Shown piece after piece: positions 387 to 1,706 of a DNA stretch of 5,271 bases. This stretch comes from a virus (lineage: Duplodnaviria; Heunggongvirae; Uroviricota; Caudoviricetes). Below the pieces are notes generated by a model. That model had not been told where the DNA came from and made no database searches. It saw only the letters and a list, made by a program, of their open reading frames with translations. How positions within the stretch are numbered: the first letter of the stretch is position 1; each line of letters starts with the position of its first letter. A program made the position numbers and the translations under genes. Location: IMG/VR virus record IMGVR_UViG_2693429733_000017; one strand, 5' to 3'.

Positions 387-422
387 TGAAGTGGCACACT
401 GAATTTGGCCACCTGAACAGAG
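387..422 (+). repeat. IS911 left terminal inverted repeat (IRL)
   Basis: TGAAGTGGCACACTGAATTTGGCCACC at 387 onward pairs imperfectly with the reverse complement of the right end (TGAAGTAGTCAACAAAAACTGGCCACC). Confidence 0.7.
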
Positions 423-458
423 GTGATATGCTCACCTCAGAACAACACAGGTGCTCCA

Positions 459-761
459 ATGAAAAAAAGAAATTTTAGCGCAGAGTTTAAACGCGAATCC
501 GCTCAACTGGTTGTTGACCAGAAATACACGGTGGCAGATGCCGCCAAAGCTATGGATGTTGGCCTTTCCACAATGACAAGATGGGTCAAACAACTGCGTG
601 ATGAGCGTCAGGGCAAAACACCAAAAGCCTCTCCGATAACACCAGAACAAATCGAAATACGTAAGCTGAGGAAAAAGCTACAACGCATTGAAATGGAGAA
701 TGAAATATTAAAAAAGGCTACCGCGCTCTTGATGTCAGACTCCCTGAACAGTTCTCGATAA
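459..761 (+). CDS. orfA: IS911 OrfA (transposase N-terminal / regulatory protein, HTH plus leucine zipper)
   Basis: ATG at 459 preceded by AGGTG; 100 aa [42 protein letters not shown]... The listed ORF start at 423 is an upstream in-frame extension lacking an RBS. Confidence 0.9.
710..716 (+). promoter_or_regulatory. Programmed -1 ribosomal frameshift heptamer A-AAA-AAG joining orfA to orfB
   Basis: AAAAAAG at 710-716 with AAA/AAG in the orfA zero frame; the -1 frame continues [35 protein letters not shown] into OrfB. Confidence 0.75.
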
Positions 762-1627
762 TCGGGAAACTCAGAGCGCATTATCCTGTGGTCACACTCT
801 GCCATGTGTTCGGGGTTCATCGCAGCAGCTACAGATACTGGAAAAACCGTCCTGAAAAACCAGACGGCAGACGGGCTGTATTACGCAGTCAGGTACTTGA
901 GCTACATGGCATCAGCCACGGTTCGGCCGGAGCAAGAAGCATCGCCACAATGGCAACCCGGAGAGGCTACCAGATGGGACGCTGGCTTGCTGGCAGGCTC
1001 ATGAAAGAGCTGGGGCTGGTCAGCTGTCAGCAGCCGACTCACCGGTATAAACGTGGTGGTCATGAACATGTTGCTATCCCTAACTACCTTGAAAGGCAGT
1101 TCGCCGTGACCGAGCCAAATCAGGTGTGGTGCGGTGATGTGACCTATATCTGGACGGGTAAGCGCTGGGCGTACCTCGCCGTTGTTCTCGACCTGTTCGC
1201 AAGAAAACCAGTGGGCTGGGCCATGTCGTTCTCGCCGGACAGCAGGCTCACCATGAAAGCGCTGGAAATGGCATGGGAAACCCGTGGTAAGCCCGGCGGG
1301 GTGATGTTCCACAGCGATCAGGGCAGTCATTATACGAGCAGGCAGTTCCGGCAGTTATTGTGGCGATACCAGATCAGACAGAGTATGAGCCGGCGCGGAA
1401 ACTGCTGGGATAACAGCCCAATGGAACGCTTCTTCAGGAGTCTGAAGAACGAATGGATGCCGGTGGTGGGTTACGTAAGCTTCAGCGAGGCAGCTCACGC
1501 CATAACGGACTATATCGTTGGATATTACAGCGCACTAAGACCGCACGAATATAACGGTGGGTTACCCCCAAACGAATCGGAAAATCGATACTGGAAAAAC
1601 TCTAACTCGGTGGCCAGTTTTTGTTGA
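716..1627 (+). CDS. orfB: IS911 OrfB frame (DDE transposase catalytic domain), expressed as OrfAB fusion by -1 frameshift
   Basis: Open frame -1 relative to orfA, ending at stop 1625-1627. DDE-type motifs present: [37 protein letters not shown]. The listed ORF 788..1627 is the part after an internal GTG. Confidence 0.85.
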
Positions 1628-1635
1628 CTACTTCA
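1600..1635 (+). repeat. IS911 right terminal inverted repeat (IRR)
   Basis: ...CTCTAACTCGGTGGCCAGTTTTTGTTGACTACTTCA ends the element at 1635. Confidence 0.7.
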
Positions 1636-1706
1636 CCCTTGCTGGACTTGAACCAGCGACCTGGCGATTATGAGTCGCTCGCTCTGACCAACTGAGCTAA
1701 AGGGCC
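1636..1706 (-). tRNA. tRNA with anticodon CAT, tRNA-Ile2 (lysidine, AUA-reading) type, 3' end truncated by IS911
   Basis: Reverse complement reads GGCCCTTTAGCTCAGTTGGTCAGAGCGAGCGACTCATAATCGCCAGGTCGCTGGTTCAAGTCCAGCAAGGG. It folds as a cloverleaf (D stem GCTC/GAGC, anticodon loop CTCATAA, T stem GCTGG/CCAGC, T loop TTCAAGT). The 5' acceptor strand GGCCCTT needs AAGGGCC, but only AAGGG is present before the IS terminus. Resembles E. coli ileX/ileY from memory. Confidence 0.75.

Follow-up and report, generated by a model that had tools for sequence, protein, structure and literature searches.

Lambdoid and Stx phages carry tRNA genes downstream of the Q antiterminator gene, the ileZ-argN-argO set of the 933W-type phages being an example. 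The locus described here lies in a 5,271-nucleotide stretch of viral DNA (IMG/VR record IMGVR_UViG_2693429733_000017; hereafter “the window”), which is the entire contig CXDM01000209.1 of the Shigella sonnei draft genome GCA_001253895.1 (100% identity over 5271 bp), and in which a complete copy of the insertion sequence (IS) IS911 adjoins a clipped tRNA gene of a lambdoid prophage on one side and a fragment of a tape-measure-like gene on the other. As in the 933W-type phages, a CAU tRNA of the tRNA-Ile2 type followed by a tRNA-Arg(UCU) belongs between a Q-like gene and the lysis cassette; the present cluster differs from theirs in having four genes (Ile, Arg, Thr, Gly), in the absence of stx, and in that this copy has been destroyed by IS911 in S. 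sonnei. The undamaged arrangement is seen in an intact prophage of E. coli FDAARGOS_944 (NZ_CP065613.1; locus L001 of our comparison), which matches window positions 1636-5271 at 99.8% with the same gene order but differs in having no IS and in that its tRNA-Ile(CAU)-Arg-Thr-Gly cluster is complete; the cluster ends ...GGGCCACCA, and the next genes are those for holin, lysozyme, Rz, DedA and terminase. From the gene order of this prophage, the Q-like gene is normally followed by the tRNA cluster and the lysis genes.

The insertion sequences of S. sonnei have been surveyed by Hawkey et al. (2020; PMC7373316), who used ISMapper to map IS sites in 126 genomes against an IS-free version of the 53G reference. 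IS911 is among five IS elements that have expanded in all Shigella species, strain-specific IS sites occur in 75% of the S. sonnei genomes, and 53G itself holds five IS911 copies and has an IS content of 7.4% (PMC7373316); rearrangements bounded by IS elements, like insertions confined to single strains, are usual rather than exceptional there, and this tRNA and this contig are not discussed in it. The original prediction for the window, made from its letters alone, held that IS911 had cut the tRNA gene short and that an IS-mediated deletion, or recombination between IS copies, had removed the remainder of the tRNA together with the late genes that followed.

The junction between IS911 and the clipped tRNA gene (IS911/CCCTTGCTGG) is found unchanged in four complete S. 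sonnei genomes: 53G (HE616528.1), CP061367.1, CP032523.1 and UGZB01000001.1. These chromosomes are the best relatives of the window and are colinear with positions 387-5271 (4885 bp) at 99.94% identity; in complete E. coli genomes, at most 69% of the window is found in a single place. In 53G the IS911 copy lies at ~783.2-784.4 kb and, as at the same locus in the other three genomes, it is accompanied by the same clipped tRNA and the same QueH-hok-Rem-DUF1367-YbcO-DUF1133 segment. The difference is at the other end of the element: in all four complete genomes the element has ...CTGACCGACAA at its left end, on the upstream side of the holin gene, whereas in the window that end meets the tape-measure-like fragment of an element located beside proBA. 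The IS911-tRNA locus itself is thus already on record in complete genomes in the public databases, and as Shigella IS biology the phenomenon is a textbook one.

When the junction was mapped on the intact prophage L001, the left flank ended at 5624/5626 and the right flank began at 6001; in the complete genomes (loci L018, L021, L030 and L033) IS911 stands in place of the intervening 374-376 bp (L001 5625/5627-6000). The lost DNA comprises tRNA-Arg(UCU), tRNA-Thr(UGU) and tRNA-Gly(UCC), as located by ARAGORN, together with 6 nt of the CAU tRNA and ~135 bp of spacer, and the holin, lysozyme, Rz, DedA and terminase genes lie directly past the IS (L018, L021 and L033). Judged from these alignments, DNA was indeed lost with IS911 at this junction, in an event ancestral in S. 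sonnei that took out a tRNA cluster, not the late region. The predicted IS-mediated deletion thus survives as an adjacent loss of three tRNAs and the tip of a fourth, but not in its supposed extent, the late genes being retained in the complete genomes. Alignment of both flanks to IS-free relatives, which had been proposed as a means of reconstructing a single original junction, did rebuild the tRNA-side junction, but traced the left flank to a different locus. The 374-bp loss could have arisen by simple insertion followed by an adjacent deletion, or by recombination between two direct IS911 copies 374 bp apart. Microhomology, targets resembling the inverted repeats and a residual duplication were sought at both breakpoints, and only a 2-nt TG ambiguity, on the left side, was found. 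The sequence GGCCACC, present in the tRNA 3' end and also in both IS911 inverted repeats, was treated as a coincidence.

The 3-bp target-site duplication is absent from this copy. The flanking triplets are TTC and CCC in the window (...GCGCGTTC/IS911/CCCTTGCTGG), as the original prediction had noted, and CAA and CCC in the four complete genomes, and no matching direct repeat was found at the IS flanks. Adjacent DNA having been lost, the tRNA-side copy therefore has no 3-bp duplication. Among control copies of IS911, perfect duplications are seen at L020 (TAC/TAC) and L025 (CCT/CCT). A copy in E. coli VL7S7 (L027 3003-4251) is also without a clean 3-bp duplication, its flanks being ...AATC and TATC..., and absent duplications at IS911 are therefore not rare. 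The missing duplication reflects the history of the copy in question and has no bearing on its identity as IS911.

The left flank of the element comes from elsewhere in the chromosome. The 345-bp fragment covers roughly codons 265-380 of about 610 and matches the middle of the E. coli LZHX12 and Z0117 genes, which belong to a small element that also encodes an integrase, a major capsid protein and a baseplate or tail-fibre protein; comparison of the intact protein with PHROG gave group 16051, tail length tape measure protein (E = 3e-48), and comparison with Pfam gave no family. It had been described as the 3' fragment of an open reading frame, but it proves to be an internal piece, cut on its other side by IS2, and its frame ends by chance inside the 41-bp IS2 terminus at 1-41. 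The contig breaks within this IS2, and a full IS2 stands at the same point in S. sonnei 53G (L005). In 53G the remnant adjoins proBA at ~0.32 Mb and is packed with IS elements; in window coordinates the pile-up consists of IS2 at 41/42, IS600 at 291-295 (53G and CP061367.1), IS911 at 386/387 (the window) and IS630 26 bp past 386 (three draft contigs). Among the 10 places listed for the 24 fragment-bearing contigs that were read, the ...GCGCGTTC/TGAAGTGG junction occurs only in the window, and in every other S. sonnei place readable at this point the gene runs on as CTTTACATC... beyond 386 without an IS. As a separate observation, GCA_000281815.1 holds two copies of the fragment (295 bp), the second within an IS600-fragment-IS2 block in yiaA/yiaB (L008 8559-11722, AGRD01000087.1); this arrangement points to transfer of the block as a composite unit or to a rearrangement mediated by IS elements.

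The part of the published ISMapper table that covers this region contains a row for IS911 at 295564/295561, with two flanks overlapping by 3 bp, and a row for IS630 at 295537/295535 (PMC7373316). The IS630 spacing of 26 bp predicted from draft contigs L011-L014 is reproduced exactly in these rows, the neighbouring IS1, IS600 and IS2 rows bracket the expected positions, and the table coordinates are ~24 kb off those of true 53G in 320 kb, a shift which fits the 7.4% IS content of that genome. From the rows for this region we infer that the element sits precisely at window 384-386 in at least one isolate, where it has two flanks and the usual 3-bp duplication, TTC. The left junction is best read, on the same rows, as one side of an ordinary and recent second IS911 insertion; the far edge of a deletion, which the left flank had been taken to represent, is not what it appears to be, since it belongs to a second locus ~464 kb away at which this portion of the table has a two-flank IS911 site with a 3-bp overlap.

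On this evidence the flanks of the IS911 in the contig probably come from two different copies, the left from one and the right from another, and the contig would then be an assembly chimera. In a first event, ancestral in S. sonnei, IS911 took the place of 374-376 bp immediately beyond the Q-like gene, and the genes for lysis and packaging stayed on its far side; in a second, recent and rare event another IS911 would have inserted normally in the tape-measure-like remnant by proBA, duplicating TTC; and scaffolding or gap filling would have threaded the left flank of the second copy and the right flank of the first through a collapsed IS911. If A and A' denote the left and right flanks of the proBA-side site, B' and B the left and right flanks of the tRNA-side copy, and IRL and IRR the IS911 ends, the window contains A/IRL (...GGTAGCGCGTTC/TGAAGTGGCAC) and IRR/B (...GACTACTTCA/CCCTTGCTGG). 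The partner junctions expected of a chimera are B'/IRL (...CTGACCGACAA/TGAAGTGGCAC, also as ...CTGACCGACAA/TGAAGTGG) and IRR/A' (...GACCACTTCA or GACTACTTCA/TTCCTTTACATC, also as ...CTACTTCA/TTCCTTTACATC). Both have counterparts in the species: B'/IS911 is present in the four complete genomes, and IS911/A' is implied by the two-flank site in the rows of the ISMapper table for this region.

The surroundings of the junction would favour such an error. The IS911 copies compared differ by 0-1 nt within S. sonnei, and window positions 1636-2877 (1.24 kb: clipped tRNA, DUF1133 and the start of YbcO) are identical in three S. sonnei prophages, except for an A at 1708; the prophage copies diverge from 2878 on, with ~98.5% identity overall. 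The unique left fragment and the unique right part of the contig are linked across ~2.5 kb of consecutive repeats, which is beyond the reach of short-insert read pairs, and mis-threading is therefore the likelier source of the missing late genes. Drafts of the type of GCA_001253895.1 are scaffolded assemblies of short reads, a 250-N gap being present in a sister draft from a similar project. Going by sequence comparison, then, the apparent late-gene loss is most likely an assembly artefact.

Several points weigh against this. The chimera is a deduction from the contig sequence, the related genomes and the published table. ISMapper takes no account of how two flanks are connected through the IS between them, and a two-flank call such as that in the table portion for this region equally fits a real reciprocal exchange; nor can the isolate or isolates with the 295561-295564 site be tied, from the same portion, to GCA_001253895.1. 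The same pipeline threaded IS630 correctly between its own flanks in L012 and, in the window, linked IS911 and the tRNA to the correct prophage body, and so its joins across repeats are not always wrong. Finally, chromosome arrangement varies in S. sonnei, and the isolate concerned may not share the direct orientation that the two loci have in 53G and CP061367.1.

Alternatively, the join may be real, the second IS911 having recombined homologously with the tRNA-adjacent copy and exchanged flanks with it; we consider this possible but unlikely. Each of the two IS911 copies occurs in S. sonnei, those compared have an identity of at least 99.9% and would be good recombination substrates, and the contig ties the junction to the correct prophage body. 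Furthermore, IS-bounded rearrangements are frequent, the yiaA/yiaB block in L008 being an example, and strain-specific IS sites are found in three quarters of the genomes surveyed (75%; PMC7373316). The joint is, however, found in none of the five records longer than 1 Mb that carry the fragment (0/5), the second copy is rare, so recent, which leaves little time for recombination, and short-insert pairs would be unable to link the unique DNA on the two sides of the repeats. The orientation of the loci is also unfavourable: in 53G and CP061367.1 they lie ~464 kb apart in direct orientation, in the order B'-IS-B ... A-IS-A', and A/IS/B would therefore be the joint of a tandem duplication of ~464 kb or of an excised circle, which excludes a viable deletion or a simple inversion. 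In a strain with a background inversion between the loci, a real join would instead mark a further large inversion. The recombination between IS copies offered in the original prediction accordingly gains a second IS911 site in the species, as far as the table rows for this region go, but a real exchange is rated below the assembly chimera. Were the join real, it would represent a recent IS911-by-IS911 exchange in one isolate, with a ~464 kb tandem-duplication joint or a large intra-replichore inversion, and the Q-like antiterminator region would be parted from the lysis and packaging genes of its prophage.

The account first proposed, in which a single tRNA-side IS911 made an adjacent deletion or a one-ended intramolecular transposition through the late region into the tape-measure fragment, is the least likely and highly improbable: this copy does lack a duplication and did cause the small 374-bp adjacent loss in the S. 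sonnei lineage, but the flanks are ~464 kb apart on the same replichore, the interval between them presumably contains essential genes, deletion from the IS left end would in the reference orientation head away from the fragment, the late genes are kept beside this IS in complete genomes, and the two flanks with a 3-bp overlap in the ISMapper rows for this region indicate a normal insertion at 384-386.

The biological weight of the locus is small; prophage decay through IS elements has been amply documented in Shigella, as have rearrangements with IS elements at their borders. The locus does carry a caution for the use of draft assemblies: a contig that passes through a multicopy IS is unfit for inferring deletions, because its flanks may come from different IS copies. 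A sister draft offers a further case for comparison, in which an IS600-like element joins the truncated DUF1367 gene of the window's prophage to the replication genes of another prophage (L035 6677-7791; GCA_001258575.1, CXIN01000012.1), the complete genomes (L031 and L032) having an integrase and modABC at the point where L035 shows replication genes. This joint is either another rearrangement or another mis-threaded repeat.

The element in the window is IS911 (IS3 family) by its length, its termini, the 0/-1 phases of orfA and orfB, the A6G site and the rve domain. It begins with TGAAGTGGCAC... at 387 and ends with ...GACTACTTCA at 1635, and the same TGAAG...CTTCA termini are found in three other IS911 copies. 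The terminal inverted repeats, which begin 5'-TG and end CA-3', are imperfect: TGAAGTGGCACAC... and TGAAGTAGTCAAC... agree in 24 of their first 40 positions and have the block TGGCCACC in common. The window copy is 98.8-99.9% identical to the comparison copies, with 1 difference from that at L020, 3 from L027 and 15 from L025, the last two carrying the PGAP label 'IS3-like element IS911 family transposase'. No base separates it from the tRNA-adjacent copy in L018, L021, L030 and L033 (100% identity), and it has the T at window 1629, within the right inverted repeat, that sets the tRNA-adjacent IS911 apart from other copies. Copy-specific differences were considered as a test of a hybrid element and were uninformative, as the only other S. 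sonnei copy compared differs at 1629 alone. Matches in E. coli that seemed to put IS911 or ISEc52 beside the DUF1133 region were rejected; the IS in these sits near hok or DedA, and the apparent adjacency arose from separate pieces that the search had merged into one place.

The truncation of the tRNA gene claimed in the original prediction is confirmed by the intact homologue in E. coli FDAARGOS_944 (L001 5995-6071, 77 nt, annotated by PGAP as tRNA-Ile), which ends ...CCAGCAAGGGCCACCA. The window tRNA matches it only as far as AAGGG, which runs straight into the IS, and the last 6 nt, CCACCA (C71, C72, A73 and CCA), are gone. Positions 71-76 are now the IS bases UGAAGU and there is no CCA; the damage spares the D, anticodon (CAU) and T arms. 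ARAGORN and Rfam nevertheless still call a 74-nt tRNA at 1633-1706 (59 bits), because the TGA of the IS end stands in for positions 71-73, where the borrowed bases give a G1-G72 mismatch and a G2-U71 wobble, and the predicted folding energy weakens from -34.8 to -29.2 kcal/mol. The tRNA-gene scan suggested at the outset thus returned a tRNA, and the damage was seen only by comparison with the homologue. Since the scanners borrow IS bases, a tRNA scan alone would hide the damage, and it should be borne in mind that they report a full-length tRNA-Met at this clipped gene. The two names differ in origin: ARAGORN says Met from the anticodon, and PGAP calls the intact homologue tRNA-Ile.

As the CCA and the top of the acceptor stem are gone, the clipped tRNA is probably neither matured nor charged. 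A less likely addition to the real-join alternative is that the IS supplies U71, G72 and A73, and that trimming and CCA addition could leave a weakly functional tRNA-Ile2. Two sister prophages, L015 and L020, in complete S. sonnei chromosomes still have the same four-tRNA cluster intact, and the functional cost of the clipping is therefore probably nil. The IS separates the Q-like gene, and the hairpin downstream of it, from the lysis cassette, and may so dampen late transcription; the clipped tRNA and such possible dampening fit the general decay of prophages in Shigella.

Features of the 5,271-bp window, with the evidence for each
Feature	Position	Strand	Evidence
IS2, terminal 41 bp	1..41		100% match to end of PGAP-annotated IS2-family transposase element (L002 10807-10847)
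Internal 345-bp fragment of ~610-aa tape-measure-like gene	42..386	-	95% identity to intact E. coli genes
Complete IS911, 1249 bp	387..1635	+	Inverted repeats ~387-422 and 1600-1635
IS911 orfA, 100 aa	459..761	+	Pfam HTH_Tnp_1, E = 5e-14
A6G -1 frameshift motif of IS911 orfA	710-716	+	Motif located within orfA
IS911 orfB frame, DDE catalytic domain	788..1627	+	Pfam rve, E = 3e-32, plus rve_3
Clipped prophage tRNA, CAU anticodon, tRNA-Ile2 type	1636..1706	-	Comparison with intact 77-nt gene L001 5995-6071
Spacer of ~190 bp, Q-like gene to tRNA	1707..1895	-	Hairpin plus T7; one promoter-like site (1745-1716)
DUF1133 Q-like antiterminator, lambdoid prophage	1896..2450	-	Pfam DUF1133, E = 2e-107; Phage_antitermQ, E = 8e-7
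hok/sok type I toxin-antitoxin module, complete	3912-4237	-	Hok open reading frame 3912-4124; sok RNA 4062-4237, Rfam RF01794, 117 bits
QueH (epoxyqueuosine reductase) gene	4295-4960	-	Prophage early region, adjoining hok

The remainder of the window, from 1896 onward, belongs to a lambdoid prophage and forms its early-right arm, with DUF1133, YbcO, DUF1367, Rem, the hok/sok module and QueH following one another on the minus strand. In the spacer, direct reading and folding reveal a GC-rich hairpin, CCCGC-TTTAT-GCGGG, followed by T7 at ~1794-1822 on the minus strand; it is placed like a tR'-type terminator, with the Q-like gene on one side and the tRNA on the other, and a scan for consensus terminators did not flag it. 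Single-nucleotide differences specific to the window, relative to the four complete S. sonnei genomes, were seen at 1708, 4616 and 5056, the first of them 2 nt upstream of the tRNA 5' end. That they might be traces of mixing between paralogous prophages was considered and rejected, the paralogues having the common base at 1708. QueH acts in tRNA modification, and the phage that carries it has a tRNA cluster as well.

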